Positions 1 to 24,004 of a DNA stretch of 64,000 bases are shown here, one piece after another. Source of the stretch: an uncultured virus (IMG/VR IMGVR_UViG_3300020183_004466) (taxonomy: Duplodnaviria > Heunggongvirae > Uroviricota > Caudoviricetes). Both the position numbers and the translations under genes were made by a program. The stretch lies in the IMG/VR virus record IMGVR_UViG_3300020183_004466. One strand, written 5' to 3'. Under the pieces are notes generated by a model that ran no database searches, was not told where the DNA came from, and saw only the letters and a program-made list of their open reading frames with translations. The number at the start of each line of letters is the position of its first letter. Position 1 is the first letter of the stretch.

Positions 1-611
1 AAGAACTTCCTTCCAACCTCCTGTGGCGCTCCCACAAGACTTGTGAGCTTGTTATGGTCGCAATCGAAACTCCCACCAACCTCCTGTGGCGCTCCCTCAA
101 GACTTGTGAGAGAGTTATAGTGGCACCGGAAATCCCCTCCAACCTCCTGTGGCGCTCCCACAAGACTTGTGAGCTTGTTATGGTCGCAATCGAAACTCCC
201 ACCAACCTCCTGTGGCGCTCCCTCAAGACTTGTGAGCTTGTTATCACCGCAATAGAAACGCTCTCCAACCTTCTGTGGCGCTCCCACAAGACTTGTGAGT
301 CTGTTACAGTAGCAATAGAAACTCCCCGAAACCTCCTGTGGCGCTCCCTTAAGATCTGTGAGCTTGTTATATTCGCAACGGAAATCCCCTCCAACCTTCT
401 GTGGCGCTCCCACAAGGTTTGTGAGCTTGTTACCGCGGCAATAGAAATTCCCAGTAACCACTCCAAACTTAACACCTTTAAAGTCGGTTAAGTTTTTACT
501 GGAACAATTGAAATCTCCTTTAATATCGACTAGTCTTGTCTCCTGATTAAAAGTCCACCTGCCTTTAGCGAACTGGTCTAAAAATTCTATTTGTTCTTTA
601 TTAAGCTTCAT
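1..611 (-). CDS. LRR-like 22-aa repeat protein, family A (3' end outside window)
   Basis: ATG at 611 gives MKLNKEQIEFLDQFAKGRWTFNQETRLVDIKG..., then LTSLxGAPQxVGxxFxCxxN repeats open to the window edge; paralog of 1790, 2407 and 3668 genes; not in ORF track because truncated. Confidence 0.9.
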   Translation of the reverse strand, partial: MKLNKEQIEFLDQFAKGRWTFNQETRLVDIKGDFNCSSKNLTDFKGVKFGVVTGNFYCRGNKLTNLVGAPQKVGGDFRCEYNKLTDLKGAPQEVSGSFYCYCNRLTSLVGAPQKVGERFYCGDNKLTSLEGAPQEVGGSFDCDHNKLTSLVGAPQEVGGDFRCHYNSLTSLEGAPQEVGGSFDCDHNKLTSLVGAPQEVGRKF

Positions 612-615
612 AGCT

Positions 616-652
616 CAAATGTAGAAAATTCTACTTAAAGAAAAAAATGATT
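616..652 (-). promoter_or_regulatory. 37-bp early/host-type promoter repeat
   Basis: minus strand AATCATTTTTTTCTTTAAGTAGAATTTTCTACATTTG ending in Bacteroidota -7 element TAnnTTTG, 4 nt before ATG. Confidence 0.8.
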
Positions 653-653
653 C

Positions 654-1529
654 CTAATCTTCGTCATTACAAGCGATCATATCCCTTAGTTGACTAGCAA
701 CCTCATAGTTCTCATCAGCAACGGCTAACTCTAACATGTAGTCAATTACCACTCTCGGAAAGTCTTCAATGACACCCTTGTTGTAAACCGATTTGATATA
801 AGTCTTCTCGTAATCCTCAAGCTCTTCGACACTCTCAGCCTCGATATCATACACACGGTCTGTGAGATAACTTTCATATCCCGTGATATCAGCGGCCATC
901 TCATAAGCCTCTTCGGAACCACCCTCAGGGATGTTCTGACTAACAATCTCTCCGTTCTCCAAACTGTACTCACCGACATTATGACCAAAATCCTCATCCG
1001 CAAATCTCACATGAAACACAACATCCGGATACTTACGACTTAAAGCCTCCATTACAGGATACGGATTACTCCAAGCCGTATGGAAATAAATTCCATCGTC
1101 TCCGTTCTCGTTGGTGTCATATGCGTTCCACTTAGTACCCCAATTAGCATTACTCCATGAATACCAATCACGGTGTCCGTATAATCGCTCATTATCCAAA
1201 GCCCTCTGAGCCTCTTCGAGATTAGCCGTGCCCTTCTCGAGCATATGATCGATTAAATCTTCTGGTGTCGCAAACTCAGTCGCCCATTGATATCCCATTA
1301 TCTCATTAATCCCCGTGGGATCACCAGCACGATACTTCAAGATAGCAAGTCCGTTACTCGTACTGCTGCCGCTAGTGATATCCAAGCTCTCTGGCCTCGG
1401 AACGATTTTATTAAAATCGATATGTCTGATATTCCCTTCCTCATCAACGGAAATGATCTCACCCTTAATCTGTGCTACCCTCTTGGCGTCGCCTTTGAGA
1501 GTCAAAATGTTTGAAATGTGATTCGGCAT
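654..1529 (-). CDS. DUF1281/YubB ferredoxin-like protein with C-terminal UVR (UvrB/C) motif
   Basis: MPNH start, DWYSW..NWGTKWNA, FHTAWSNP, FADEDFG; C-terminus LAVADENYEVASQLRDMI. Confidence 0.75.
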   Translation of the reverse strand: MPNHISNILTLKGDAKRVAQIKGEIISVDEEGNIRHIDFNKIVPRPESLDITSGSSTSNGLAILKYRAGDPTGINEIMGYQWATEFATPEDLIDHMLEKGTANLEEAQRALDNERLYGHRDWYSWSNANWGTKWNAYDTNENGDDGIYFHTAWSNPYPVMEALSRKYPDVVFHVRFADEDFGHNVGEYSLENGEIVSQNIPEGGSEEAYEMAADITGYESYLTDRVYDIEAESVEELEDYEKTYIKSVYNKGVIEDFPRVVIDYMLELAVADENYEVASQLRDMIACNDED

Positions 1530-1549
1530 TGTCTATTATTTTTACAAAT

Positions 1550-1729
1550 TTAATCTTCTTTTTTCAATAAATCCATAATATCGTCACGCTCGTCCTGAAG
1601 CATTACGTTATTCATATAAGAAACTAAAATATCAACCGCATTCAATCCATGCTCTCCACTAGTCTCTACCATATTAACGAGTAATAACTCTATAGCAAGA
1701 TTTCTTTCCGATTCTTTTGTGTTTTCCAT
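1550..1729 (-). CDS. small hypothetical protein (59 aa)
   Basis: manual translation MENTKESERNLAIELLLVNMVETSGEHG...LLKKED, downstream of promoter repeat 1753-1789 with A-rich leader. Confidence 0.7.
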   Translation of the reverse strand: MENTKESERNLAIELLLVNMVETSGEHGLNAVDILVSYMNNVMLQDERDDIMDLLKKED

Positions 1730-1752
1730 TTTTTTTGTTTTATTGGTTATCT

Positions 1753-1789
1753 CAAATGTAGAAAATTCTATTTAAAGAAAAAAATGATT
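1753..1789 (-). promoter_or_regulatory. 37-bp early promoter repeat
   Basis: near-identical to 616-652. Confidence 0.8.
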
Positions 1790-2365
1790 CTAATTAAAAT
1801 GTCCAAATCGTCCCAACATTGAAATACCCTTTTGTGTGTCTTTAGATAATCTATCGTCCAATCCTCTAGACATCTTCTTCCAATCCCTACTCTTGATCTC
1901 ACTCTTAAGTATCGATAAAGCAAACCAATAATCGATCTTCTTCTCACACATAGTCTCCCACACCAACTCTAACGTCTTCTCTGAGATCGGGTTATCGCCG
2001 CACCAGAAGAAACCTCCCCCAACCTCCTGTGGCGCTCCCACAAGACTTGTGAGCTTGTTACGGGAGCAATAGAAACCCCATCCAACCTTCTGCGGCGCTC
2101 CCTCCAGACTTGTGAGCTTGTTACTGGAGCAATCGAAACCCACTCCAACCTTCTGTGGCGATCCCTCAAGACTTGTGAGAGAGTTATTGGAGCAAATGAA
2201 ATTCCCAGTAACCACTCCAAACTTAACACCTTTAAAGTCGGTTAATTTTTCCGAGGCACAATCGAAACACCCTCCGATGTCAACTAGTCCAGTCTTCTCG
2301 TTAAGAGTCCACACTCCATCAGTGTACTTGTCTAAAAATTCTATTTGTTCTTTATTAAGCTTCAT
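1790..2365 (-). CDS. LRR-like repeat protein, family A (3 full repeats)
   Basis: conserved N-cap, LTSLxGAPQxVG repeats, C-terminus KGISMLGRFGHFN. Confidence 0.9.
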   Translation of the reverse strand: MKLNKEQIEFLDKYTDGVWTLNEKTGLVDIGGCFDCASEKLTDFKGVKFGVVTGNFICSNNSLTSLEGSPQKVGVGFDCSSNKLTSLEGAPQKVGWGFYCSRNKLTSLVGAPQEVGGGFFWCGDNPISEKTLELVWETMCEKKIDYWFALSILKSEIKSRDWKKMSRGLDDRLSKDTQKGISMLGRFGHFN

Positions 2366-2369
2366 ATAT

Positions 2370-2406
2370 CAAATGTAGAAAAATCTACCTAAAGAAAAAA
2401 ATGATT
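2370..2406 (-). promoter_or_regulatory. 37-bp early promoter repeat
   Basis: near-identical to 616-652; TACATTTG 4 nt before ATG. Confidence 0.8.
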
Positions 2407-3612
2407 CTAATTAAAATGTCCAAATCGTCCCAACATTGAAATACCCTTTTGTGCGTCTTTAGATAATCTATCGTCCAACTCTTTAGACAGCTTCTCCCAA
2501 TCCCCACTCTTGATCTCACTCCTAAGTAACGATAAAGCAAACCAATAGTCGACCTTCTTCTCACACATAGTCTCCCGCACCAACTCTAACGTCTTCTCTG
2601 AGATCGGGTTATTGGAGCAAAGGAAACACCCGCCAACCTTCTGTGGCGCTCCCTCAAGACTTGTGAGATTGTTATCGTAGCAAGATAAATCCCCGCCAAC
2701 CTTCTGTGGCGCTCCCTCAAGACTTGTGAGAGAGTTATAGGAGCAAGAGAATCTCCCTCCAACCTTCTGTGGCGCACCCTCAAGACTTGTGAGAGAGTTA
2801 TAGGAGCAATAGAAACTCCCTCCAACCTCCTGTGGCGCTCCCACAAGACTTGTGAGCTTGTTATCGTGGCAATCGAAACTCCCCTCAACCTTCTGTGGCG
2901 CTCCCCTAAGACTTGTGAGATTGTTATTGTGGCAATCGAAACTCCCCTCAACCTTCTGTGGCGCTCCCCTAAGACTTGTGAGATTGTTATAATTGCAAGA
3001 GAAACTCCTTCCAACCTCCTGTGGCGATCCCTCAAGACTTGTGAGCTTGTTATTGCGGCAATAGAAACTCCCTTTAACCTCTTGTGGCGCTCCCTTAAGA
3101 CTTGTGAGCCTGTTATTGGAGCAACCGAAATACCCTCCAACCTCCTGTGGCGCTCCCACAAGACTTGTGAGCTTGTTATCGTGGCAATCGAAACTCCCCT
3201 CAACCTTCTGTGGCGCTCCCCTAAGACTTGTGAGCATGTTATAGGAGCAATCGAAACTCCCCTCAACCTTCTGTGGCGCTCCCCTAAGACTTGTGAGATT
3301 GTTATAATTGCAAGAGAAACTCCTTCCAACCTCCTGTGGCGATCCCTCAAGACTTGTGAGCTTGTTATTGTCGCAAATGAAATCCCATCCAACCTTCTGT
3401 GGCGCTCCCACAAGACTTGTGAGAGAGTTATTGGAGCAACTGAAATTCCTAGTAACCACTCCAAACCGAACACCTTTAAAGTCGGTTAAGTTTTTACTTC
3501 GACAATAGAAATCCCCTTCGATATCGACTAGTCCAGTCTTCTCGTTAAGAGTCCACTTGCTGCCATAAGTGCACTTGTTTAAAAATTCTATTTGTTCTTT
3601 ATTAAGCTCCAT
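2407..3612 (-). CDS. LRR-like repeat protein, family A (about 12 repeats)
   Basis: 66-bp tandem repeats; start moved to ATG 3612 (MELNKEQ) by paralogy. Confidence 0.9.
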   Translation of the reverse strand: MELNKEQIEFLNKCTYGSKWTLNEKTGLVDIEGDFYCRSKNLTDFKGVRFGVVTRNFSCSNNSLTSLVGAPQKVGWDFICDNNKLTSLEGSPQEVGRSFSCNYNNLTSLRGAPQKVEGSFDCSYNMLTSLRGAPQKVEGSFDCHDNKLTSLVGAPQEVGGYFGCSNNRLTSLKGAPQEVKGSFYCRNNKLTSLEGSPQEVGRSFSCNYNNLTSLRGAPQKVEGSFDCHNNNLTSLRGAPQKVEGSFDCHDNKLTSLVGAPQEVGGSFYCSYNSLTSLEGAPQKVGGRFSCSYNSLTSLEGAPQKVGGDLSCYDNNLTSLEGAPQKVGGCFLCSNNPISEKTLELVRETMCEKKVDYWFALSLLRSEIKSGDWEKLSKELDDRLSKDAQKGISMLGRFGHFN

Positions 3613-3630
3613 AGTTATTTGGTTACAATA

Positions 3631-3667
3631 CAAATGTAGAAAAATCTACTTAAAGAAAAAAATGATT
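3631..3667 (-). promoter_or_regulatory. 37-bp early promoter repeat
   Basis: near-identical to 616-652. Confidence 0.8.
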
Positions 3668-4366
3668 CTAATCAAAATGTCCAAACCGTCCCATCATTGA
3701 AATACCCTTTTGTGTGTCTTTAGATAATCTATCGTCCAATCCTCTAGACATCTTCTCCCAATCCTCACTCTCGATCTGGCTCTTAAGTATCGATAAAGCA
3801 AACCAATAGTCGACCTTTTTTTCTTGCATCGTCTTCCACACCAACTCTAACGTCTTTTCTGAGATCGTGTTATCGGAGCACCAGAAACTCCCCTCAACCT
3901 CCTGTGGCGCTCCCACAAGACTTGTGAGCTTGTTACTTGAGCAATAGAAATACCCTCCAACCTTCTGTGGCGCTCCTTCAAGACTTGTGAGCTTGTTATG
4001 GTCGCAATCGAAACTCCAACCAACCTCCTGTGGCGCTCCCTCAAGACTTGTGAGAGAGTTATTGTCGCAATCGAAATTCCCTCCAACCTTCTGTGGCGCT
4101 CCCACAAGACTTGTGAGCTTGTTATTGGAGCAATAGAAATTCCTTCCCACCTTCTGTGGCGCTCCCACAAGACTTGTGAGCTTGTTATGTGAGCAATCGA
4201 AACACCCAGTAACCACTCCAAACTTAATACCCTTAAAACTTGATTCTCCTCGCCTCCCACAATCGAAATCACCTTTAATATCGACCAGTCCAGTCTTCTC
4301 GTTAAGAGTCCACCTGTCTTTAGCGAACTGGTCTAAAAATTCTATTTGTTCTTTATTAAGCTTCAT
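3668..4366 (-). CDS. LRR-like repeat protein, family A (5 repeats)
   Basis: same caps and repeats as paralogs; ends KGISMMGRFGHFD. Confidence 0.9.
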   Translation of the reverse strand: MKLNKEQIEFLDQFAKDRWTLNEKTGLVDIKGDFDCGRRGESSFKGIKFGVVTGCFDCSHNKLTSLVGAPQKVGRNFYCSNNKLTSLVGAPQKVGGNFDCDNNSLTSLEGAPQEVGWSFDCDHNKLTSLEGAPQKVGGYFYCSSNKLTSLVGAPQEVEGSFWCSDNTISEKTLELVWKTMQEKKVDYWFALSILKSQIESEDWEKMSRGLDDRLSKDTQKGISMMGRFGHFD

Positions 4367-4370
4367 ATAT

Positions 4371-4407
4371 CAAATGTAGAAAAATCTACCTAAAGAAAAA
4401 AATGATT
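4371..4407 (-). promoter_or_regulatory. 37-bp early promoter repeat
   Basis: identical to 2370-2406. Confidence 0.8.
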
Positions 4408-4937
4408 TAGGAAGCTTTTGGATCGTACTTAGATAATATTTTTAAAACCCGATCCCGATGCTTACTCTCGTATATGCTCATGAAAGTCAACCAATGGGCA
4501 AACTGTAGTCTCTCGGCAAAAAGCAAATCCGGGGTTTTAAAAGGAGCTCCAACTGAGAGTTTACCGATGAGCTCTCGTAATCCACCAAGAGAAATTTGCA
4601 GCTGCATAAAAGCATCCGGGTCGATTCCGTCTACCAATTGTTTAAACTTGACATCCGTCTTACCTTCGATATCTTCAACATCCACACCGAAGAATTCTCC
4701 GCTTCCCATACGTCCACCTAAATCCTGATACAACTTATTATGTACACGAGACATTTCTTCATATACACTCTGAAGCTCTTCCCGCATCCGGTCAAATCGT
4801 GCATCGCTCTTTTCCAACACGGCAGTTGAGATACCTAATATACGTCCCATACGCTTGCTCACGTCGTTACCCTCGTAAAAGTGATCTGCGATGTTTCTTG
4901 AAACCGCTAATGCCGCTGTCTTGGTTGTGTCTTTCAT
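4407..4937 (-). CDS. hypothetical protein
   Basis: 176-aa ORF behind promoter motif 4952-4988. Confidence 0.75.
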   Translation of the reverse strand: MKDTTKTAALAVSRNIADHFYEGNDVSKRMGRILGISTAVLEKSDARFDRMREELQSVYEEMSRVHNKLYQDLGGRMGSGEFFGVDVEDIEGKTDVKFKQLVDGIDPDAFMQLQISLGGLRELIGKLSVGAPFKTPDLLFAERLQFAHWLTFMSIYESKHRDRVLKILSKYDPKAS

Positions 4938-4951
4938 AATCTCCTTTTCTG

Positions 4952-4988
4952 TAAATGTAGAAATTTCTTATAAAACAAAAAAATGATT
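4952..4988 (-). promoter_or_regulatory. early promoter (TAcaTTTA variant)
   Basis: AATCATTTTTT...CTACATTTA with the same 37-bp span. Confidence 0.7.
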
Positions 4989-5154
4989 TCCAAAAAATTC
5001 CAATCCGAGGGGAAAATTTCTATCCCCGGGGGTTCCACAGGAACCGCGATTCCGAGAGATGTCCGAACACTTTCCGCTCGGATTCCGAACGAGTTCCGAG
5101 CGGCATCCCGCTGGGATTTTCTTGGAATCTCTGGGATTTCCGAATTTCCTCGCA

Positions 5155-5243
5155 CAACAAAAAACCGAGTCCTTTTGAGACTCGGTCTTATGATAACCAA
5201 TTATAAACCTAAATAATACGGAAAACAAAGATATGTTTTACAA
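5155..5243 (-). ncRNA. candidate U-rich small RNA (~85 nt)
   Basis: promoter motif 5246-5282 followed by an ATG-free U-rich stretch and hairpin ACCGAGTC..GACTCGGT plus U-tract. Confidence 0.45.
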
Positions 5244-5245
5244 AG

Positions 5246-5282
5246 CAAATGTACGCTTACTTTACCGAATAAAAAAACAATT
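5246..5282 (-). promoter_or_regulatory. early promoter
   Basis: AATTGTTTTTTT...GTACATTTG, 37-bp span. Confidence 0.6.
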
Positions 5283-5298
5283 CTCGGATAAATATCAT

Positions 5299-5751
5299 AT
5301 GAAACGTATAAAATCATTCGGAACTCTTTCGGAATCCACATCGGACACCCCAGTTTACACATCGAGACTCTCCAGCTACAAGAAAAATGACAGGCCCACT
5401 CAGATAGACACCTATGACGAACCCAAGTCCCTATATGGCATGAACGTCACAGACGGGAAGGTGGAATGGACACTACAAATCCAACACTTCAACTACGGAA
5501 TAGACATAGGACACGAAGGAGCAAGAATTAAATCCCTAACACTCCACATCGAGAAGGACGACGAATACACAGGAGAACCAGAGGAAGACACTATAGAACT
5601 CACGGAAGAAGACATCAACCACGAGAATCTAAAATACGAAGTAAACCAATTTCCTCTAGACCTGGACGCAATAGAGATCGATATGAATCAATCAGAAGAT
5701 CCCAAAGACTGGAACATCACACTAAAGATAGGAAGAATCTCTGACTATTAG
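5299..5751 (+). CDS. acidic hypothetical protein with CTS-like N-terminus
   Basis: likely start MKRIKSFGTLSES at 5299, 4 nt after GATAAATA. Confidence 0.75.
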   Translation: MKRIKSFGTLSESTSDTPVYTSRLSSYKKNDRPTQIDTYDEPKSLYGMNVTDGKVEWTLQIQHFNYGIDIGHEGARIKSLTLHIEKDDEYTGEPEEDTIELTEEDINHENLKYEVNQFPLDLDAIEIDMNQSEDPKDWNITLKIGRISDY

Positions 5752-5809
5752 AAAATTCCACACACGTACGCGCACATCCGCACGGGGTCCCCGGTACATC
5801 CCCCCACTA

Positions 5810-5840
5810 AAAAGACCAGCCCGAAAGACTGGTCTTTTCT
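5810..5840. terminator. bidirectional intrinsic terminator
   Basis: AAAAGACCAG...CTGGTCTTTT between convergent genes. Confidence 0.75.
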
Positions 5841-5865
5841 TTTTATAATCTCGAGGGGTGTGAGA

Positions 5866-6540
5866 TTAGTTTGTCATTTTAACTTCCATGCCCTCAGCGG
5901 TAACGTTCAGTGTGACATTAACACCAAACTCTTTAACTAGCTTAGCTAAATCCGCAAGATCAATATTGCTAGTTGGCTTAACCGGCTCAGCAACTTTAAT
6001 CTCGCCCTGCTTATTCTCAGCAGCCATCACTAGCACATCAGCAACCAACTCAGGAGTACTCATCACGTTCGCCAATGGCTTACGTACTCTCTTAATTCCA
6101 GTAGGCGGAACAAATCGATCTCCATCAGAGATAAATCCATCCTCTACCAACTTACTCTTCTGACACATGATAGATGCAGGGGTTCTTCCTAGCAAATCTG
6201 TAGTCTCCTTAATAGTCATCTTACTAAGAACCGCGTCCCGTAATAACTCATTCTCAGTATCAGTCCATCTGTAGTTAGCTCGATTGTAAGTGGGAGACGA
6301 CTTAGATGTTCTAATCTTTCTAGCATCTGATTTAATCCCCTCTCTCTTTACTAACAAAGGGTTGTTGCTTCTCTTACCTTTAAGATGAAAACCTCTAGGA
6401 CGCACCTTGTCGCCTAACCATCTGCGTAAACTCTCGGAGTTAATATCAAACTCCTTGGAAACCTCTCTCAAGGTTTTACCATCAGCTACATATGATCTCA
6501 TAGCAGCCACTCTTACATTTTTTGGAATCTTCTTTCCCAT
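5866..6540 (-). CDS. putative DNA-binding protein (HTH plus Myb/SANT-like repeat)
   Basis: GKTLREVSKEFDINSESLRRW HTH; RWTDTENELL...LGRTPASI. Confidence 0.65.
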   Translation of the reverse strand: MGKKIPKNVRVAAMRSYVADGKTLREVSKEFDINSESLRRWLGDKVRPRGFHLKGKRSNNPLLVKREGIKSDARKIRTSKSSPTYNRANYRWTDTENELLRDAVLSKMTIKETTDLLGRTPASIMCQKSKLVEDGFISDGDRFVPPTGIKRVRKPLANVMSTPELVADVLVMAAENKQGEIKVAEPVKPTSNIDLADLAKLVKEFGVNVTLNVTAEGMEVKMTN

Positions 6541-6558
6541 ATATTAAAATTAAATTGT

Positions 6559-6918
6559 TTACAAATCTTCAACGAAGAACATCGCCATCGTTATTCTCTT
6601 ACCATTAGCTCGGGCAATCTGACGGGCAACACCAGCTATCTCCTTCGCCTTATCCCTCGGACTCACCTCAGAACTTACTGGGATATTCACCTCTCCACTC
6701 TTAGTCTTCACCTTAACACTCTTAGTCTTCTTCACTCTCTTCTCGGACAATCCCATCGCACTCTTCTGATACTGTACCGCAGCAGGGGTTCTACCAAGAG
6801 CCTCTGCGATCTCCTTGATACTCTTACCACTCTTGTACATACCCTTCAGAGTCTTACGATCATCCTTAGTCCATGCAGTGGAATCATTAGAAGGAGTTTC
6901 TTTTTTCTTTATAATCAT
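6559..6918 (-). CDS. Myb/GcrA-like HTH DNA-binding protein
   Basis: WTKDDRKTL..GKSIKEIAEALGRTPAAV; related to the second domain of 5866-6540. Confidence 0.65.
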   Translation of the reverse strand: MIIKKKETPSNDSTAWTKDDRKTLKGMYKSGKSIKEIAEALGRTPAAVQYQKSAMGLSEKRVKKTKSVKVKTKSGEVNIPVSSEVSPRDKAKEIAGVARQIARANGKRITMAMFFVEDL

Positions 6919-6951
6919 AACCTTTTACTTTTTTTGTTTTTAGATTTTATG

Positions 6952-6988
6952 CAAATCTAGAAGTTCTCTTCAGAAGAAAAAAATGATT
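6952..6988 (-). promoter_or_regulatory. early promoter
   Basis: AATCATTTTTTT...CTAGATTTG. Confidence 0.75.
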
Positions 6989-6989
6989 T

Positions 6990-7945
6990 CTGAATTTTCC
7001 TACAATTCCCACATCTCTCTATTACATACGGACTCCCGGGACGCACCCGAGATCGCCCCCGCATACGCATACACACACGGGGGTTTCCAAGAGTTTCCAA
7101 GAAATTCCCGGGGTATCTCAGGGATTCCCAGGAAGTTCCCCGAAGATCCATCCTAGATATCCAGGAGATTCCCCGAAATTCCCAGATAATCGCCCGCTCG
7201 AGACCGCGTGGGGTCCCCCTGGGGGCCTTCTGAGGCGCACGTAGAAAGAGGGTTTAACCTCGATCACTTTGTGGTATATTCTACGGGCCTTCTACCAGGG
7301 AGTTCTGTGGGATCTTTTCAGGGAATATCTAGGAGTATTTTAGCTGCACGGGACGCTGAGAAAATCCCCTTGTAGGTCTATCTATTAACTACGTGTATAC
7401 GTGTGAGCGCGGGGTCATCCATACGTCCCCTTCTCTATACAGTATGTGTGGATGTTCTCTATACAGTAGGGATAGGTGTCTATATAGGTATGTGAGTGAT
7501 GTATACTATGTGTAGGGTAGTGATTCTTTTTGTTTTGTGTGTTTTAATTATGGTTGGTGTATTATTAGGTGTATGTGTATACTGTATAGAGGTGTGTATA
7601 TGTATAGAGAGATGTATATAGATAGTAGTTATTAGTAGGTGTTAATAGATGATAGTAGTGATGGGATTATTGTCTATAAGAGCGGGGGCATGATTGGGGG
7701 ATTTTTGGTGTTTAGTCCCCCCTCGGAAAGGGTGGAAAATTCGGGATTTATTTTGGAGATTTTGGTGGAAAATTCGGGGGACTAAACGGGGATTTTTCTA
7801 TTCCGCGCTTTGTGGATGTTTAAGCTAAGATAATGAGGAGGAGGCGAGGCGAAATGGAAAAATGAGGCGAAATTGGGTAGTGAAAACGGGGCGAAACGGG
7901 GCAAGTGAGGCGAGTGTTGCCTCGGTGGATGAGGAGGGTATTGAA
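6990..7945. other. non-coding control region, candidate replication origin
   Basis: no credible ORF; divergent transcription; + strand changes from C/A-rich to G/T-rich; short direct and inverted repeats. Confidence 0.5.
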
Positions 7946-7948
7946 ATG

Positions 7949-7956
7949 GATATATA
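7949..7956 (+). promoter_or_regulatory. late-type promoter motif GATATATA
   Basis: 4 nt before ATG 7961; motif recurs upstream of more than 12 genes. Confidence 0.55.
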
Positions 7957-7960
7957 GAGT

Positions 7961-8527
7961 ATGACCAGAGACGAGCTTATCAAGGTATTAGAGAAGAAAG
8001 GTTACTCCTACAAGATAGAAGGGGATAAGATAGTTGTTACCTATTATAATGGGGATGTCAATTTGAGTTCCCTAACGAGTCTTCCCCCTGGTGTGGAGTT
8101 CAGAAATAAAGGGTTTGTCCTTTTGGAATCACTAACGACACTTCATCATGGTGGGGTATTCAATAATGAAGGGAGTGTCTTTTTGAATTCACTAACGACA
8201 CTTCATCATGGTGGGGTATTCAATAATGAAGGGAGTGTCTTTTTGAATTCACTAACGACACTTCATCCTGGAGTCCAATTCAATAATGGTGGAGAGGTCA
8301 TTTTGGGTTCACTAGAGACACTCCCTCGTGGTGTGGTGTTCAAGAATAGATGGGGTGTCCAGCTTTCAGTATTAAAATCTATTCCCCCCGGTACAGAGTT
8401 TAGAAATGGTCGTGGTGTCGATTTGGGATCACCAAAAGGATGGTTTAGTGAATGGAAAGGAAATATAAAAGGTATAGATTCAAATAGGCTATTGAACGTG
8501 ATGATTAAACAAGAGATGTTTATATGA
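7961..8527 (+). CDS. LRR-like repeat protein, family B
   Basis: MTRDEL..IEGDKIVV N-cap, 22-aa LxSLTxLPxGVxFxNxG repeats, C-cap GNIKGIDSNRLLNVMIK. Confidence 0.9.
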   Translation: MTRDELIKVLEKKGYSYKIEGDKIVVTYYNGDVNLSSLTSLPPGVEFRNKGFVLLESLTTLHHGGVFNNEGSVFLNSLTTLHHGGVFNNEGSVFLNSLTTLHPGVQFNNGGEVILGSLETLPRGVVFKNRWGVQLSVLKSIPPGTEFRNGRGVDLGSPKGWFSEWKGNIKGIDSNRLLNVMIKQEMFI

Positions 8528-9228
8528 CCAGAGAAGAGTTTAAGAAGGTATTAGAAGATAATGAATACTCCTACGAGATAGAAGGGGATCGGATAGTTGT
8601 TACGCATAGGAAGGATGTCTATTTGAGATCTCTAACGAGTCTTCCCCCTGGGGTGGAGTTCGAGAGTGGAGGGTATGTCTATTTGGAATCTCTAACGAGT
8701 CTTCCCCCTGGGGCCCAGTTCAAGAATAGAGGGTCTGTCTATTTGGAATCACTAATGAGTCTTCCCCCTGGTGTGGAGTTCAATAATGGAGGGAATTATG
8801 GAGGTAATGTCTATTTGAAATCACTAACGAGTCTTCCTCCTGGGGTCCAGTTCAAGAATAGAGGGTCTGTCAATTTGGAATCACTAATGAGTCTTCCCCC
8901 TGATGTGAAGTTCGAGAATGTAGGGGAGGTCCGTTTGGATTCGCTAAAGACACTCCCTCCTGATGTGAAGTTCGAGAATGTAGGGTGGGTCCTTTTGGAT
9001 TCACTAGAGACACTCTCTCCTGGGGTTGAGTTCAGGAATAAGGGGTGTGTCAGTTTACATTCCCTAACGAGTCTTCCCCCTGGGGTGGAGTTCGAGAATG
9101 ATGGGTATTCCGATTTGAAATCCCTAATGGGGGGATGGTTTGATGATTGGAAAGGTAATATAAGAGGAATAGGATCTAATAGGTTGCTTAATAAGATGAT
9201 AGAATTAGGGTTATTCGATAAAAAATAA
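8524..9228 (+). CDS. LRR-like repeat protein, family B
   Basis: same caps, about 7 repeats; ATGA overlap. Confidence 0.9.
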   Translation: MTREEFKKVLEDNEYSYEIEGDRIVVTHRKDVYLRSLTSLPPGVEFESGGYVYLESLTSLPPGAQFKNRGSVYLESLMSLPPGVEFNNGGNYGGNVYLKSLTSLPPGVQFKNRGSVNLESLMSLPPDVKFENVGEVRLDSLKTLPPDVKFENVGWVLLDSLETLSPGVEFRNKGCVSLHSLTSLPPGVEFENDGYSDLKSLMGGWFDDWKGNIRGIGSNRLLNKMIELGLFDKK

Positions 9229-9232
9229 AAGG

Positions 9233-9679
9233 ATGACAAGAGAAGAGTTTATAGAGGTATTAGAAAATAAAAGGTATTCCTACGAGATAGAAGGAGATAA
9301 GATAGTGGTTACTGATTATGGGTATGTCGATTTGTCTTTACTAACAAGCCTTCCCTCTGTGGTGGAGTTCAATAATAGAGGTGATCTCAATTTGAAAAGA
9401 TTAAAAACACTTCCCCCTGGTGTCCAGTTCAAGAATTGGGGGGATGTCTATTTGAACTCGCTTAAGACTCTTCCGCCAGATGACCAATTCAATAATAAGG
9501 GGTATGTCAATTTGTCTTCACTAACAAGCCTTCCTCCTGGTGTCCAGTTCCATAATGGAGGTGGTGTCTATTTGGAATCAATAATCGGGGGATGGTTTAA
9601 TCGCTGGAGTGGTAACATAGAAGGAATAGATAGTACTATATTATTAAACTTGATGATCAAAAGAGGAATGTTTATATGA
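9233..9679 (+). CDS. LRR-like repeat protein, family B
   Basis: same caps and repeats. Confidence 0.9.
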   Translation: MTREEFIEVLENKRYSYEIEGDKIVVTDYGYVDLSLLTSLPSVVEFNNRGDLNLKRLKTLPPGVQFKNWGDVYLNSLKTLPPDDQFNNKGYVNLSSLTSLPPGVQFHNGGGVYLESIIGGWFNRWSGNIEGIDSTILLNLMIKRGMFI

Positions 9680-10062
9680 CAAGAGAAGAGTTTATAGAGC
9701 AATTAGATTATATGGGCGTTCCTTATAAGATAGAAGGCGATAAGATAGTTGTAAATGGAACAAATATAAAGCTTAATTTATTAGATAGTATTCCATCAGG
9801 AGTTCGTTTTGATAATAGGATTGGTGTGAGCTTGGTGTCGCTAAAACACCTTCCACCTGATGTAGTTTTCAATAATAGGGAGGACGTATTTTTTAGAGAT
9901 ATAGAGACAATCTCTCCTGGTGTGGAATTCAGAAATGGTGGATATGTATATCTTGGAAAATTCACGGATGGTGGGCTTTTCCATTATTGGGATGGTAATA
10001 TAAAAGGAATAGATAGTAAGAGATTATTGAACTTGATGATTAAACAAGAGATGTTTATATGA
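9676..10062 (+). CDS. LRR-like repeat protein, family B
   Basis: same caps, fewer repeats. Confidence 0.9.
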   Translation: MTREEFIEQLDYMGVPYKIEGDKIVVNGTNIKLNLLDSIPSGVRFDNRIGVSLVSLKHLPPDVVFNNREDVFFRDIETISPGVEFRNGGYVYLGKFTDGGLFHYWDGNIKGIDSKRLLNLMIKQEMFI

Positions 10063-10502
10063 CCAGAGAAGAATTTATAGATCAATTAGATAAGGACAAG
10101 ATCACTTATAATTTATTAGGTAGTGATATAGAGATCACTGGTTCTAATGGTCTTGCTTACAAGTGGAACGTGGGTATTAGTCATGTAAAGGCATTGCCTT
10201 CTGGTGTTATATTTAATAATAAGGGCAATGTTCATATACCAGATCTACAAGAGATTCCTGAGGGAGTTCAGTTTAACAACGGGGGTAACATTGTTTTAGG
10301 ATTATACGAGCAAGGTATTAAGATACATCCTTCCACTGTGTTTAATAATGGCAAGAGTAAGATTATGATTGGGTATCAAAGGGGTGGTAAATACATGTTT
10401 AACACATCTGATGATTGGGGTGAATCTTGGGATGGTTCTATCGATGATATAAACACCAAGAGATTGTTTAAGCTCCTGGTTAAGCGAGGGGTATTTTTAT
10501 GA
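10059..10502 (+). CDS. divergent LRR-like protein, family B
   Basis: MTREEFI start, LPSGVIFNNKG, C-cap GSIDDINTKRLFKLLVK. Confidence 0.85.
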   Translation: MTREEFIDQLDKDKITYNLLGSDIEITGSNGLAYKWNVGISHVKALPSGVIFNNKGNVHIPDLQEIPEGVQFNNGGNIVLGLYEQGIKIHPSTVFNNGKSKIMIGYQRGGKYMFNTSDDWGESWDGSIDDINTKRLFKLLVKRGVFL

Positions 10503-10854
10503 GTGTGACAAATAAATTTTTGTGGGAAATCAAGGAGCTTGGATATAGAGCGGATCTGAGTGGTGATAGAATAATAGAATAATAGTCTCCGTGCCTGTTA
10601 CGAAAAAGCGAGGATTATACAGTGTTTTATACATAAGCGGGATTGTAGATATTCCACCAAGGGTCACCTTTAAGGGTGACTTTATAAACATGCACTATAT
10701 CCCTTTTTGGAATATACCAAAAGACACAGAGTTCGATGGTATTGAAAAAGTGATCCTCAAGGAGTTTAGGACTGACGATCCACAGGATTTTGATTTACCA
10801 GGCGTCGATAGTATGAGACTCTTCAAATTGATGGTTAAAAGATTAGGGGTTTAG
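10499..10854 (+). pseudogene. family B paralog frameshifted by an 8-bp tandem duplication
   Basis: ATG 10499 frame stops at 10580; removing one ATAGAATA (10566-10581) restores ...GDRIIVSVP... in frame with ORF 10591-10854, which ends GVDSMRLFKLMVK. Confidence 0.75.
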
Positions 10855-10855
10855 A

Positions 10856-10892
10856 AATCATTTTTTATTTTATTAAGAGTTTTCTATCTTTG
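10856..10892 (+). promoter_or_regulatory. early promoter
   Basis: AATCATTTTTT...CTATCTTTG. Confidence 0.75.
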
Positions 10893-10899
10893 TGTTTGT

Positions 10900-11592
10900 A
10901 TGGAGAAACACACACAGAAAGGACCTGATGGTTACATGATGATCGGAGCTAACATGGGTAATGTTATACCTATGGATGTTATAGGTATTCAGCATAAAGG
11001 AGATATAGATGTCGCACATATTGTTTTTCTTATTGATGATGAGAGATTTAAGAACAAGCTCGTTATAACCCCTGGTCTAATAACATACACGGATTTTAAG
11101 AACTCTCAAAAACAAATAAGCATCTATAGATCCGCTCCTGAATGTTTAGAAAATTCTCCAAATAAATGGAGATTGATGGATATAGATGAGCTTGAGGCTT
11201 TCTATGATTTTTATAAGCGAGAGGGGATGGGTCAGTTCTATGATTTGGTTGAGGATTATAGTTTCGAATACGGATCATCAGATTTTGTGGATATAGATCG
11301 CACTGAAACAAGTAAGATCTATTGTGTGGATTTTGGGAGTGGTAAAAGAAAGACAAGATATCAATATCAGGATAAGGCTTTGATGATGATAAGGAAAGTC
11401 ACTGATGATGACATTGTCACCATAATGAAGGACATGATTGATAGAGTGGCTTTTACCGAATTTAGTTTTATTGCGGAGAAGGTGATAAAGCTTTATCCGA
11501 ACTTAGAGGAGAGAATCAAATCACTAGCTGGTGAGGATGCTGATGATTCTTTCAAGGGATCGAGATTTCTTAGAATTTTTGAAACTTATTAA
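10900..11592 (+). CDS. hypothetical protein with DUF1566 (Lcl)-like domain and degenerate C-terminal tag
   Basis: KWRLMDIDEL, YCVDFGSG; ends KGSRFLRIFETY. Confidence 0.55.
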   Translation: MEKHTQKGPDGYMMIGANMGNVIPMDVIGIQHKGDIDVAHIVFLIDDERFKNKLVITPGLITYTDFKNSQKQISIYRSAPECLENSPNKWRLMDIDELEAFYDFYKREGMGQFYDLVEDYSFEYGSSDFVDIDRTETSKIYCVDFGSGKRKTRYQYQDKALMMIRKVTDDDIVTIMKDMIDRVAFTEFSFIAEKVIKLYPNLEERIKSLAGEDADDSFKGSRFLRIFETY

Positions 11593-11600
11593 TAAAGATT

Positions 11601-12413
11601 ATGGAGCTTACAGAAAAACAAGAGAAGTGGTTGAATAGATGCGTAAATGGTTATACTTGGTGGAGGAATATACCCGGGCATTTTGAGGTCAACCAAGAAA
11701 CTGGACTAGTTGATATCTATGGAACTTTTGATTGCTCTAATCAGGGTATAGAAGATTTTATGGGTATTAGATTTGGAGTGGTTACAGGAATAAAATTTGA
11801 TTGCTCATATAACGAACTTACAAGTCTTGAAGGTGCTCCTCTTGAAATAGGGAGTAGTGAGGATAGTATGGCTGCTGGAGCTGAATTTTTATGCTCGCAT
11901 AACAATTTAAAGAAACTAGGAAACGTTCTTCCTAAACAAAAGAATTATTTAACATACTTCGACTGCAAGGATAATCTTTTGGAAAATCTGGTAGGGCTTC
12001 CCAAAAATATTATGAATTTAGATTTTTCTAAAAACAGGATAATAAGTCTCAAAGGAATACCCTTAGGATTTAGATTTACCGAGGAATTTTATTTAAAACA
12101 TTTTTATAATGAATCATATCGACCGGATATAGTTCACGAGTTAGATTATATTAGATGTGAAGGAAATATAATTCCGGAAAGAAGAATAAGAAGCATATAC
12201 AAAACTATGGTGGAATTCCAGTGTGATTATTGGATGGCTTTAGCTCTTCATGCTAAAGGTATAAAATATTGGAGTCCTGATATATGGGAGAAGATTCTTA
12301 AGGATCCTGAAGTAAAGCATTTCTCTGATTTAACTGAGGGATTTGATTCTGTTGCTATATCAGAAATGTATATGGCTTCTTTGGCTCTATCTGAATTAGA
12401 AATGAATTTATAA
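11601..12413 (+). CDS. divergent LRR-like protein, family A
   Basis: GLVDIYGTFDCS..FMGIRFGVVTG, NELTSLEGAP, DYWMALAL shared with family A. Confidence 0.8.
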   Translation: MELTEKQEKWLNRCVNGYTWWRNIPGHFEVNQETGLVDIYGTFDCSNQGIEDFMGIRFGVVTGIKFDCSYNELTSLEGAPLEIGSSEDSMAAGAEFLCSHNNLKKLGNVLPKQKNYLTYFDCKDNLLENLVGLPKNIMNLDFSKNRIISLKGIPLGFRFTEEFYLKHFYNESYRPDIVHELDYIRCEGNIIPERRIRSIYKTMVEFQCDYWMALALHAKGIKYWSPDIWEKILKDPEVKHFSDLTEGFDSVAISEMYMASLALSELEMNL

Positions 12414-12450
12414 TCCAGAGTTTAACGTTAACCTCTAAATTTATTTAATA

Positions 12451-12487
12451 AATCGTTTTTTTAATCTGACCCGATATTCTACATTTG
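12451..12487 (+). promoter_or_regulatory. early promoter
   Basis: AATCGTTTTTT...CTACATTTG. Confidence 0.75.
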
Positions 12488-12508
12488 AGAGTGTAATAAT
12501 TAAGAAAT

Positions 12509-13222
12509 ATGGAAAAAAAAGACAAAGCAAAATTTTTCTTCGGATTGGATATCCTTTTAATTTCTCACGAATTAGAATCAATAGAAGAAAAAGACAAAAG
12601 AAATGATAGAGCGGGTTCCCTTATTAGGAGAGCAGCTGTTATTTATATGAACGGCGGTAACCAATATAGGGATATGATATATGATGTTTTTAATAACGCA
12701 CTAAAAGAATACCAAGATTGGTATTACAATAATATTTATAGCGTCGTAATGAGTAATCCAGTTCATCTAATGGAAGATGGAGATGCTTGTCCAATCCCTA
12801 AATATGATGTTAACAAATATGATCTCAATAAATACTTCGATGGACTCAATAAAGAGGCATTCGAGGAGTTACAAAAGTTGATATTCTTTCTTAAAGATCC
12901 AGCATCACAAGAGGCATTAGAAAATTTTGGTAAAGTTCACGGAAGTGATAATGAAAAATTCGCTGATGAATCTAGAAACTTCTATGTACTAGCCCATAGT
13001 ATTTTAGTTGCAACATTAGAGGGAGGTGAATTTTTAGATAGATTGGAAAAGATATTTGGGGGATATGGTCTTTCAGACCAAGATTCCAAAGATCTAAATG
13101 AATTTTCTGAAAAAACACTAAGTAATCCTTCAGAAGCAAATAGGTTAAAGGATGAAGTTGTTAAGAATTTCTCCATAGAAAAGATCGCTAAAGACTTCTT
13201 GAAATATTCTAGAAGTAATTAA
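12509..13222 (+). CDS. hypothetical protein
   Basis: 237-aa ORF between promoter and terminator. Confidence 0.8.
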   Translation: MEKKDKAKFFFGLDILLISHELESIEEKDKRNDRAGSLIRRAAVIYMNGGNQYRDMIYDVFNNALKEYQDWYYNNIYSVVMSNPVHLMEDGDACPIPKYDVNKYDLNKYFDGLNKEAFEELQKLIFFLKDPASQEALENFGKVHGSDNEKFADESRNFYVLAHSILVATLEGGEFLDRLEKIFGGYGLSDQDSKDLNEFSEKTLSNPSEANRLKDEVVKNFSIEKIAKDFLKYSRSN

Positions 13223-16064: not shown

Positions 16065-18233
16065 ATGAAAAAAATCTTATCCTTTATAATTTTAATGATG
16101 TGTGGTTTTTATGGATTATCACAATGTAATAACTACCAGATTTATGAGAGCTTCACGGGTTCTTTACCAACACAAGGTGGTACGTGGACTGAAAACTCAA
16201 TGATAGTAGTTACCACACCAGTTAGAACTGGAACACACGCAATTGGTTTTAATGGTTCCGGTGATTGGATCAGAATACCCCAGATTGCCAATCCTGGAGT
16301 ACTTTCATTTTGGTACAGAAGAAGTTCAAACACAACCGCTTGGACTTTAAATATTCAGACATCGCCTGATGGAACTACATGGACAACTAGAGGTTCTGTA
16401 ACAGCACCTACAGCGACATACCAACAATATAGTTTAAATATTGGTTCGCTTGGTTTAACTAATGTTTTTATTAGATTGATAGACGCTAGAGCGTCTGGGA
16501 CACACCAACGTTATGTAGAAGATCTAAGTATTACATCGACATCTTCATCTGTAAATACTTTAATTCCAATATTAGGTGCATGTTCACAAACATTAACATC
16601 AACTTTAACATATTCACTATCTGATGACGGTGGCCCAGCAGGACCTATTTCAACAGGATATGGTAATAGCGTAGATAGAACAATCACATTAACACCGTCA
16701 GACAATACCAAGAAGCTGCAATTAAATTTTAGTCAATTGGATTTGGAAACGAGTTGGGATTACTTGTATATCTATGATGGTGCAAACACATCAGCTCCGT
16801 TGCTTGCAACCTTGAACGGTACAACAATACCAAGTGCAATAACCGCTGAAAATGCTTCTGGACAATTAACAATAAGATGGACTACCGATGGTTCAAATGT
16901 AGGTGCTTGGGGTGGATTTTTAGCAAGCATTACATCGGTAACTATATGTACGACACCAACAAACGGAGGAACATTATCTTCAACAAAAACCAATACGACG
17001 GTTAATGATGCAACAACACTTACAACTTCCGGAAATGGTGGAACTATAACTAAATTAGAATGGTCATATAATAACTTTACAAGTGTTGCGGGATCTATAT
17101 CAAGTCCCTCCAATCCATACACTTTTATGATGAACATACAACAATCACAGATTTATTTCAGAACAACATCAAAAGACGGTACATGCCCCTCAGGTAACTC
17201 AAACATTGTAACGGTCAACTTGAACAACGCAACACCATACTCTAGTTCTAGCGGAACTTATGGAATACAAGATGGCGATCATGTCACTAACGTAACTTTA
17301 GCAAACATAAACAATACCTCAACAAACGATGGAGATTCCTATCAAGATTTTAGATCTCAGATAATTGAAGTAGCCAAAGGAACACAATACACACTATCAG
17401 TTACCGCGACAAACACCTTCAATCCTGGTCAAGGGTATGCTGCGTGGATTGATTGGAATGGAGATGGTGTTTTTCAGACAACTGAAAATGTGTTACAATC
17501 TGCACCAGCAAATAGTGTTTCACAAAATATAACAGTACCAATAGATGCTATAACAGGTGATGTATTAATGCGAGTTTTATCCGTTTGGAATACAACACCA
17601 TCAACTAATGCTTACTCAACTACTGCTTATCGATGGGGTGAGATAGAAGAATATACCGTTAGAATATCAGTTGAATTACCAATTGAATTAGTTAGTTTTT
17701 CTTCTACCTGTATAGGAAGTGGTTCTCTCATAACATGGAAAACTTCCTCTGAGAACAACACCTCACATTTTACTTTGGAAAAATCTAAAGATGGATCAAA
17801 CTGGTACATAATAAATAATCAACAAGCTGCAGGTAATAGCAACAATCTAATTACCTATACATTTACTGACGAGGAAAAGAATAATGATATCAATTACTAC
17901 AGATTAAATCAATATGATATAGATGGAACATATGAAACATTCGGTCCCATTTCTAATAATTGCTTAGAGGAGTCATCAGGATATTTCTCTATATTTCCAA
18001 ACCCGAGTACAAATTCTTTTAGTGTCATAATAAATAATAGTTCTTTAATAGGGACTTGCTTTTTATACATTAGGGACGAAGGAGGAAGAATAGTATATGA
18101 TAAAAATATTGAAGTCACACAAGGAATAAATCTATATCTTATAGATAAATTAGATATATCACCCGGATTTTATTACATATCAGTAGTAAACTCTAAATAC
18201 ACGACTGGAATTTTAAAGCAGATAATTAAATAA
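16065..18233 (+). CDS. secreted T9SS type A cargo protein (CUB + GEVED domains)
   Basis: signal peptide MKKILSFIIL; CUB DLETSWDYLYIYDG; GEVED AWIDWNGDG..GEIEEY; LPIELVSF; CTD IFPNP...GFYYISV. Confidence 0.85.
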   Translation: MKKILSFIILMMCGFYGLSQCNNYQIYESFTGSLPTQGGTWTENSMIVVTTPVRTGTHAIGFNGSGDWIRIPQIANPGVLSFWYRRSSNTTAWTLNIQTSPDGTTWTTRGSVTAPTATYQQYSLNIGSLGLTNVFIRLIDARASGTHQRYVEDLSITSTSSSVNTLIPILGACSQTLTSTLTYSLSDDGGPAGPISTGYGNSVDRTITLTPSDNTKKLQLNFSQLDLETSWDYLYIYDGANTSAPLLATLNGTTIPSAITAENASGQLTIRWTTDGSNVGAWGGFLASITSVTICTTPTNGGTLSSTKTNTTVNDATTLTTSGNGGTITKLEWSYNNFTSVAGSISSPSNPYTFMMNIQQSQIYFRTTSKDGTCPSGNSNIVTVNLNNATPYSSSSGTYGIQDGDHVTNVTLANINNTSTNDGDSYQDFRSQIIEVAKGTQYTLSVTATNTFNPGQGYAAWIDWNGDGVFQTTENVLQSAPANSVSQNITVPIDAITGDVLMRVLSVWNTTPSTNAYSTTAYRWGEIEEYTVRISVELPIELVSFSSTCIGSGSLITWKTSSENNTSHFTLEKSKDGSNWYIINNQQAAGNSNNLITYTFTDEEKNNDINYYRLNQYDIDGTYETFGPISNNCLEESSGYFSIFPNPSTNSFSVIINNSSLIGTCFLYIRDEGGRIVYDKNIEVTQGINLYLIDKLDISPGFYYISVVNSKYTTGILKQIIK

Positions 18234-23993: not shown

Positions 23994-24004
23994 GTGTTAT
24001 ATTA

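Follow-up and report, generated by a model that had tools for sequence, protein, structure and literature searches.

Four tandem phage genes with hypervariable cysteine-ladder leucine-rich repeats, probably a recombining binder repertoire

The window analyzed here is a stretch of 64,000 nucleotides from an uncultured virus (IMG/VR record IMGVR_UViG_3300020183_004466), and its first 4,366 positions (1-4366) hold, in tandem, four paralogs (named g1, g3, g4 and g5 in the following) that belong to a phage-specific family of small, soluble leucine-rich repeat (LRR) proteins. Their positions are given below, together with the gene that lies between g1 and g3 and with a divergent member of the family found further along the window.

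3..611, minus strand: g1, truncated at the window start, 203 aa visible, 7 full units at 12-452
654..1529, minus strand: non-family gene between g1 and g3, DUF1281_C / Api92-like, phrog_12644
1790..2365, minus strand: g3, 191 aa, 3 full units (2018-2206), with N-terminal cap and C-terminal helical domain
2407..3612, minus strand: g4, 401 aa from the ATG at 3612, 13 full units (2632-3450)
3668..4366, minus strand: g5, 232 aa, 5 full units (3893-4207), the protein used for modelling
11601..12413, plus strand: divergent fifth member, 270 aa, with the family N- and C-terminal signatures and 2 recognisable units

The proteins share one layout, in which an N-terminal helical cap is followed by a variable count of 21-residue cysteine-ladder LRR units and by a C-terminal domain of about 65 aa that is conserved and helical. 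Two further family members lie beyond the window start on a colinear metagenome contig (L035), on which the g1 locus is a complete gene of 337 aa with 10 units. The unit pattern is G-x-F-x-C-x-x-N-x-L-T-S-L-x-G-A-P-Q-x-V-G, and Tandem Repeats Finder (TRF) reported a period of 63 at 8-452, 2008-2179, 2608-3446 and 3868-4202, so that the 66-bp unit assumed in a first, sequence-only reading of this DNA has to be replaced by one of 63 bp, that is 21 aa. The same reading had given about 3 to 12 units per paralog, some of them exact copies; the exact copies were found (3 copies), while the range becomes 3-13, with at least 7 units in g1. The window contains 28 full units (7+3+13+5), 25 of them distinct at the DNA level, and within g4 unit 3 is identical to unit 8 and unit 5 to unit 10. 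Cys is present in all 28 units. Positions 2, 4, 6 and 7, which flank the core Phe and Cys, are hypervariable, and positions 1, 9, 14, 19 and 21 are less variable; read as a four-residue code, the hypervariable positions take 24 distinct forms among the 28 units. Long open reading frames (ORFs) in other frames (2-475, 2586-3473 and 3847-4272 on the minus strand; 3-491 and 2866-3489 on the plus strand) were rejected as genes, because the repeats are stop-free and produce such frames as by-products.

The codon pattern NNT TTC NNT TGC NNC NNT AAC and the invariant framework codons described earlier are both present in the units, and the four codon strings quoted as examples were located in unit 1 of g1 and in units 2, 5 and 6 of g4. 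The third base is T at column 2 (27/28 units), T at column 4 (27/28), C at column 6 (22/28) and T at column 7 (28/28). Framework codons are identical in 25-28 of the 28 units, silent positions included (CTC 28, ACA 28, AGT 26, CTT 27, GGA 27, GCG 25, CCA 27 and CAG 27). NAY codons end in C 11 times and in T twice at column 6, and never in C and 23 times in T at column 7 (Fisher p = 1.3e-7), comparable codons elsewhere in the window ending in T in 58-74% of cases; Asp is written GAC at column 6 and GAT at columns 2, 4 and 7, and His CAC at column 6 and CAT at column 7. Averaged over the 378 unit pairs, the per-site difference at codon positions 1, 2 and 3 amounts to 0.667, 0.491 and 0.129 for the four hypervariable codons, and to 0.022, 0.011 and 0.042 for 12 framework codons. 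The window and the related genome G002 have the framework codons CTC ACA AGT CTT .. GGA GCG CCA CAG in common, those of a second relative (G003) being CTC ACC TCA CTG .. GGA GCA CCA CAG and those of a Vibrio phage CTA ACT TCG TTG .. GGT GCT CCT CAA. Ser at column 12 is AGT in the window and TCA or TCG elsewhere, and the third base of column 7 is T in 28/28 units of the window, C in 33/35 of G003 and T in 7/7 of the Vibrio phage. Framework codons and the fixed third base are thus particular to the individual phage, and the fixed third base reflects identity by descent within a lineage and not a universal constraint.

The AlphaFold2 model of g5, built from an alignment of 41 sequences (pLDDT 95.8, pTM 0.88), predicts a curved LRR solenoid, a confident outcome of the structure prediction that the sequence-only reading had proposed as a check. 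It comprises an N-terminal helix, two short strands per unit (V at column 20; F-x at columns 3-4) and a five-helix C-terminal domain. VIA-align of this model gave Z scores of 13.6 for a designed LRR protein, 12.9 for YopM, 12.5 for the IpaH9.8 LRR and 11.8 for the SspH1 LRR, with 50 LRR entries, internalins among them, at Z 10-13.6; a Foldseek search of the same model against the PDB returned no match with E <= 0.001. When a sequence profile was compared with PDB sequences, InlJ of Listeria monocytogenes (PDB 3bz5) was the best match (E 1.1e-19), followed by SspH1 (6.6e-13), and both alignments kept F/L, C/L, N and L in register, pairing Cys with Cys and Asn with Asn. Pfam LRR_4 matched g4 with E 5.1e-12. 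In LRR proteins, the concave sheet and the loop next to it are lined by the x positions of xxLxLxxN. The hypervariable columns correspond to these x positions in the InlJ profile alignment and lie within or adjoining the short strand in the g5 model; both observations support the earlier placement of the variable residues on the ligand-binding face, provided that the side chains are exposed as the alignment suggests.

The phage repeats have the 21-residue period of InlJ, and like InlJ they replace the second core Leu by Cys and show an Asn ladder and an NxLTxL motif. InlJ itself is secreted and wall-anchored on the bacterial surface. Unlike InlJ, the phage proteins have no signal peptide, carry other N- and C-terminal domains and a GAPQxVG loop motif, and are hypervariable and multicopy; the match to NCBIfam internalin_J (NF033187, E 6.5e-28) reaches 97.5 bits against a cut-off of 1700 and is thus below the family cut-off. 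Judged from these comparisons, the repeats belong to the InlJ-type cysteine-ladder LRR class, with the whole proteins outside the Internalin J family. The LRR parts of the type III effectors IpaH, SspH and YopM are similar as well (Z 11.6-12.9), being short bacterial-type protein-binding LRR modules, and the C-terminal cap motif of SspH1 (NP-I/L-S..TL) aligns with the phage family. In contrast to IpaH and SspH, however, the family is phage-encoded and not type III-secreted; no Pfam match to the NEL E3 ligase domain was obtained in any of the four window proteins, and the NCBIfam SspH2 match is confined to the LRR part, with 81 bits where the cut-off is 1243.

Using the neighbouring gene (4407-4937) as query, 18 metagenome loci were retrieved, which allowed arrays of closely related strains to be compared. 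The 97.8-kb contig L035 is colinear with window positions 12-12937, with 74 mismatches and no gaps, and all 74 fall in g1 (window 65-521), none being found in 612-12937, g3, g4 and g5 included. They affect hypervariable codons (34), semi-variable codons (26), the framework (8) and the N-terminal domain (6), include silent framework changes (GCG/GCT, CCA/CCG, CAG/CAA) and thin out toward one end. This is what would be left if about 460 bp had been replaced by diverged homologous sequence, and it is unlike the trace of a codon-targeted mutator. One g1 unit of L035 has the rare codons CAA and AAA in common with unit 6 of g4, from which it differs by 3 nt, a likeness that hints at the transfer of units between paralogs. 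Of the 10 differences listed in 202-264 for a variant contig of sequencing run X13, 9 recur in the L035 allele. A further contig, L036, has the L035-type g1 and does not differ from the window in 612-3243 and 3300-8218; its g4 lacks exactly 63 bp, which leaves a hybrid of units 3 and 4 and 12 units instead of 13. A 9-unit paralog is present in L035 and absent in L036, and contigs with an 86-90% identical neighbouring gene have, in the corresponding position, family genes whose codes and unit numbers are altogether different. Because the strains differ by a whole array segment or a whole unit and are otherwise identical, the variation would arise by recombination and not by point hypermutation. 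The repeat shuffling suspected in the sequence-only reading is therefore borne out, with a one-unit indel and a 74-substitution array allele separating otherwise identical assemblies.

At silent sites the framework of the 28 units is very uniform over the four genes, with a proportion of synonymous differences (pS) of 0.048 (0.09 against a G002 gene), while the N- and C-terminal domains of the same genes give 0.20-0.32 in 3/4 comparable paralog pair-regions, the exception being the C-terminus of g3/g4 (pS 0.055). The repeat framework is hence 4-6 times more uniform at silent sites than these domains, and this indicates concerted evolution of the framework. Crude minimum-spanning-tree (MST) and Nei-Gojobori (NG86) counts on 63-bp units, which ignore recombination and are not a codon-model test, gave 76.6 nonsynonymous and 6.4 synonymous changes at codons 2, 4, 6 and 7 (MST; omega 2.46, p = 0.0076), with a nonsynonymous rate at these codons 9.6 times the framework silent rate, a framework omega of 0.41 (MST) and, by NG86, a hypervariable dN of 0.763 and a framework dS of 0.051. 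Taken with the codon sets of each lineage and the silent uniformity, the MST counts point to concerted evolution plus diversifying selection, the latter in agreement with what had been proposed before on the basis of the codon pattern.

The same pattern might also be neutral, if exposed positions were merely unconstrained and concerted evolution homogenised the rest, with no positive selection at work. The crude omega is indeed only 1.7-2.5, the hypervariable nonsynonymous rate in G003 is just 1.8 times the framework silent rate, and the semi-variable columns show omega values of about 1 (1.21 and 0.89). However, homogenisation that brings the framework to pS 0.048, with the flanks mostly at 0.20-0.32, should also erase neutral differences embedded in it, yet position 1 of the hypervariable codons differs in 66.7% of unit pairs against 12.9% for the third position, and the family-wide residue spectrum is restricted and rich in D, Y, N, S and H. 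We consider a purely neutral origin unlikely.

A promoter-like motif bears on when and where the proteins might be made, and its sites in the window are as follows.

616..655, minus strand: bipartite promoter-like motif (AAATCATTTTTTT ... TCTACATTTG), directly upstream of g1
616-655, 1753-1790, 2370-2406, 3631-3667, 4371-4406, 4952-4990 and 6952-6990, minus strand: bipartite motif sites
12450-12487, 18232-18269, 24004-24041 and 26742-26779, plus strand: bipartite motif sites

The motif (AAATC.TTTTTTT, about 15 nt, then TCTACATTTG) has 11 sites, distributed over both strands, and start codons follow it at a distance of 5-40 nt. Its cores lie before g3 (2370-2380), g4 (3631-3641), g5 (4371-4381) and a small gene (1753-1763), and it is also found before the genes at 6918, 12509, 18274, 24046 and 26777; the genes that it precedes are LRR genes, helix-turn-helix (HTH) regulators, a DUF4326 gene and other small genes. 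The copies at LRR genes contain a GTAGA....TCTAC palindrome, and the downstream half of the motif resembles the Bacteroidota -7 element, TAnnTTTG. No hydrophobic run of more than 2 residues is present in the first 30 aa of the window proteins, and there is no signal peptide; the isoelectric point (pI) is 5.0-7.5 (with a median of 5.98 in 120 homologs). The proteins would accordingly be produced inside the infected cell. Because they combine the lack of a signal peptide with a cysteine-ladder core and with the promoter class of small non-structural genes, we regard them as likely intracellular soluble binders, whose targets would probably be variable host proteins and whose task would be host takeover or counter-defence.

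It might be argued instead that the proteins are loaded into the phage head by means of an N-terminal capsid-targeting tag and injected with the DNA, like the internal proteins of T4. The family has a conserved common N-terminus beginning with MK or ME, a T4-type prohead protease (Peptidase_S77, E 2.6e-9) is encoded in G003, with no match in the incomplete relatives G001 and G002, and the T4 internal proteins are likewise described as variable arms-race proteins (PMC9026906). The tag of T4 comprises 10 residues, with processing determinants at residues 8 and 10 (PMC9026906). The prohead-protease site, taken as [LI]xE in part after that paper, was found within the first 20 residues in 0/4 window proteins and in 61/120 homologs. 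Residues 5-14 are moreover modelled, with pLDDT above 95, as the N-terminal cap helix of the solenoid, and since this helix caps the fold, cleaving it off would uncap the protein; the genes also carry the promoter motif of small non-structural genes. We think head loading through such a tag improbable; the proteins may still be packaged into the virion.

We therefore favour as the probable explanation a fast-evolving repertoire of phage LRR binders, directed at host proteins inside the cell and shaped by recombination among units together with diversifying selection. Ordinary homologous recombination among units, paralogs and co-infecting relatives, through unequal crossing-over and gene conversion, would diversify the arrays, and diversifying selection would then act on the binding face; units would in this way be kept near-identical in DNA within a genome and four codons kept different, with no dedicated mutator required. 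Several points weigh against this explanation. The exposure of the variable side chains is deduced from alignment and secondary structure, the selection figures come from crude counts on units that recombine, and selection appears weaker in G003 (omega 1.73, p = 0.05, with a ratio of hypervariable nonsynonymous to framework silent rate of 1.8). No donor of the g1 allele was found among the available paralogs, the nearest units being 1-11 nt off. The base composition of the arrays is also not accounted for by recombination alone: the four arrays (12-452, 2018-2206, 2632-3450 and 3893-4207) have 49-53% GC, with 0.50-0.56 at third codon positions (GC3), against 35% for the window and 34-38% for the N-terminal domains of the family genes, and use codons that are rare in the other genes of the phage (CTC 5% of Leu, GCG 6% of Ala, GTG 9% of Val). 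The shift might stem from recent transfer, from biased gene conversion or from selection at the DNA level. The function proposed for the proteins is an inference throughout, and their early, intracellular expression leans on the promoter motif, whose likeness to a host-type promoter is putative. Finally, all arrays come from short-read metagenome assemblies with exact repeats of up to 124 bp, so that the difference between 12 and 13 units and the order of units in g4 could be effects of assembly.

Beyond a repertoire of binders, the units might constitute a modular recognition code, in which each 21-residue unit reads one element of an extended or repetitive ligand via its four residues and the phage re-targets its binders by reshuffling units between paralogs and strains, in a manner comparable to the transcription activator-like effector (TALE) and PUF repeats that read bases. 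Such a code is admissible because 24 codes occur in 28 units, because indels and swaps proceed by units and because the alphabet is restricted and rich in D, Y, N, S and H; we nevertheless hold it to be rather far-fetched. A nucleic-acid ligand as for TALEs is disfavoured, the proteins being neutral to acidic (median pI 5.98, 120 homologs).

That the arrays as such are artefacts of short-read metagenomics is very improbable. Illumina misassembly of similar fungal repeats is documented (PMC12222747), and contigs of the Logan collection from 4 lake runs, compared with window 1-5000, break within the arrays into pieces of about 80-150 bp with many joints between paralogs, including a 2-unit skip at 2076-2206 that recurs in 3 runs with flanks of merely 28-30 letters. 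Against this, the arrays of g3 and g5 are letter-identical in the window, L035 and L036, and that of g4 in the window and L035; a protein identical to g5 through all repeats is also encoded on an independent 2,870-bp contig (P0001); exact repeats within the arrays do not exceed 124 bp; and the same architecture is present in the isolate Vibrio phage VB_VaC_SRILMA. For annotation, the case is a warning that short-read assemblies of such genes need long-read checking.

A diversity-generating retroelement (DGR) or another targeted mutator that writes the variable codons can be dismissed almost entirely: the variable codons are mostly NNY, as AAY-templated output would be, and variation is limited to few codons, but silent third-position A is fixed (ACA 28/28, GGA 27/28, CCA 27/28), column 8 is AAC in 28/28 units, g3, g4 and g5 show no point differences between near-identical strains (g4 of L036 having its 63-bp deletion), and the divergent g1 allele also has silent framework and N-terminal changes. 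The search for a reverse transcriptase covered the ORFs of the window and the relatives G001-G003, not the rest of the phage's own genome, and gave no PHROGs match among the 68 window ORFs (mostly >=100 aa) and no RVT_1 match in G001, G002 and G003 (G003 being 100% complete), a control search having matched in 3/14 genomes. Every unit-like copy found sits inside a family ORF. As far as it could be tested, a DGR target is thus rejected for lack of a reverse transcriptase, of a template repeat and of adenine-specific variation, and the doubt that the sequence-only reading had expressed, owing to invariant adenines, proved well founded.

The recombining binder repertoire favoured here has its closest parallels by process in two cellular systems. 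Loci of Flavobacterium psychrophilum likewise contain tandem LRR paralogs that are hypervariable on one face and recombine with one another (Altae-Tran et al. 2020, PMC10392669); according to that report they comprise up to 19 tandem paralogs with 2-14 internal LRRs of about 22 residues, and the LRRs of Dictyostelium have a hypervariable pair rich in Y, D, H and N that resembles columns 6-7 here. The Flavobacterium proteins lie at the cell surface and carry a signal peptide and a signal for type 9 secretion, neither of which the phage genes have, and the main text of that paper reports no phage family and uses the word 'phage' once, in another context. The high-internal-conservation (HIC) repeats of fungal NOD-like receptors (NLRs), such as the WD40 repeats of Podospora HNWD, share concerted evolution, four hypervariable codons and length polymorphism with the phage arrays; they are described as 80-100% identical, under diversifying selection and changing in length by unequal crossing-over, and as misbuilt in Illumina assemblies (PMC12222747). 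With uniform units, four hypervariable codons and 13 versus 12 units (the latter with the short-read caveat), the window arrays belong to this HIC class. Unlike the phage proteins, the fungal repeats form a WD40 propeller and belong to allorecognition receptors, so that the likeness is one of process and not of family (PMC12222747).

The variable lymphocyte receptors (VLRs) of lampreys are LRR binders with diversity on the concave face and in unit number, as in the phage arrays, and DGR variable proteins similarly confine variation to few codons. In contrast to VLRs, g3, g4 and g5 are complete ORFs with a start, a stop and a promoter motif of their own, and VLR-type somatic assembly, with an incomplete germline gene and flanking cassettes, was not found (a cytidine deaminase was not searched for). 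The label 'VLR-like' given to the arrays earlier can therefore be kept as an analogy only, without its implication of somatic assembly. By structure, the closest relatives are InlJ and the LRRs of IpaH, SspH and YopM.

The family is widespread among viruses. More than 7,487 matches of similar length were obtained, which is a lower bound for the number of homologs, and the family clusters in the ESM Atlas are 99-100% viral and unnamed; the member encoded by the Vibrio phage VB_VaC_SRILMA is annotated as 'hypothetical protein'. In 120 homologs, 692 units were counted, 633 of them distinct, with an entropy of 3.0-3.3 bits at columns 2, 4, 6 and 7 and with D, Y, N, S and H dominant. Longer matches numbered 2,787, many with a PcfJ-like N-terminal domain (PF14284) ahead of the family repeats. 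This fusion of the 21-residue array to the PcfJ-like domain is seen in P0122, P0130, P0202 and others, and some of these relatives are labelled by their source as alphaproteobacterial or conjugal-transfer proteins; the repeat module therefore appears to circulate on other mobile elements too. No account of a phage family of this kind was found in open-access papers and preprints.

The window is a segment of a large tailed phage, with PHROG matches to topoisomerase II subunits, ribonucleotide reductase (RNR), RNA ligase, family-B DNA polymerase and tail-fibre-like proteins. A related IMG/VR record of 84.5 kb is rated 31% complete, and two relatives with family genes measure 206 kb (81% complete) and 290 kb (100% complete); from these sizes and completeness values, the genome of the phage probably well exceeds 200 kb. 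G001, an 87% identical relative matched by a window 40-mer, covers no more of the window than ~41330-49000 and lacks family genes; about six such genes are present in G002 and at least 10, in two clusters, in G003, which has 14 family-matching stretches. A search of IMG/VR with a single family protein returned 1 locus, and one with the framework DNA pattern a single contig, G002. DNA of the window is present in 24 lake or freshwater metagenome runs, and megablast of window 20000-44000 against GenBank phages gave no match.

A host among the Bacteroidota is suggested by a type-9 sorting domain, by the lack of Shine-Dalgarno-like sequences, of which none was seen before start codons, and by a match to a Saprospirales metagenome-assembled genome (MAG). 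The sorting domain (Por_Secre_tail, E 0.003, weak and below the Pfam cut-off) forms the C-terminus of a 722-aa phage protein with GEVED and CUB domains at 16065-18233 on the plus strand, and the MAG contig was the sole cellular-genome match of the family N-terminal domain in a collection with one genome for each of 185,579 prokaryote species. The GEVED/CUB protein is in itself an unusual cargo for a phage.

Other features of the window were noted in passing. A second tandem family occupies 7961-10854 on the plus strand, with six small genes that contain 60-bp (20-aa) repeats of the type L-x-S-L-T-S-L-P-P-G-V-x-F-x-N-x-G-x-V-x in numbers that differ from gene to gene. These genes have a common N-terminus (MTREEF...) and a common C-terminus (...GNI.GIDS.RLLN.MIK) and match no Pfam family, the sole lead being a weak match to the NCBIfam SspH2 LRR (E 1.3e-5). 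Two ORFs about 17 kb apart, at 43786-44955 and 62591-63997, both on the minus strand, match the family-B DNA polymerase, one of them over the C-terminal and the other over the N-terminal part of the PHROG profile. Nearby are genes for topoisomerase and RNR as well as two HNH-endonuclease-like genes (40280-42261). In-frame tandem repeats of short period (9, 12 and 18 bp) occur at 41333-41613, inside an HNH-endonuclease-like gene, and at 59915-60604, where they encode collagen-like Gly-X-Y in a tail-fibre-like gene situated between two RNR subunit genes.

Near-identical repeats with few hypervariable surface codons are the signature of arms-race receptors, as in plant and fungal NLRs, VLRs, TALEs and the LRRs of Flavobacterium. 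The family described here shows this design in a virus, where one genome carries several copies, and lakes and seas yield thousands of unnamed viral proteins built in this way. Changes of such a repertoire in nature can seldom be seen as directly as in the strain comparison, where one unit was lost and one array segment replaced in 12 kb that are otherwise unchanged. If the proteins do bind host proteins, they would represent a phage-side counterpart of the repeat-based immune sensors of hosts, and would constitute a natural library of small cysteine-laddered LRR scaffolds.

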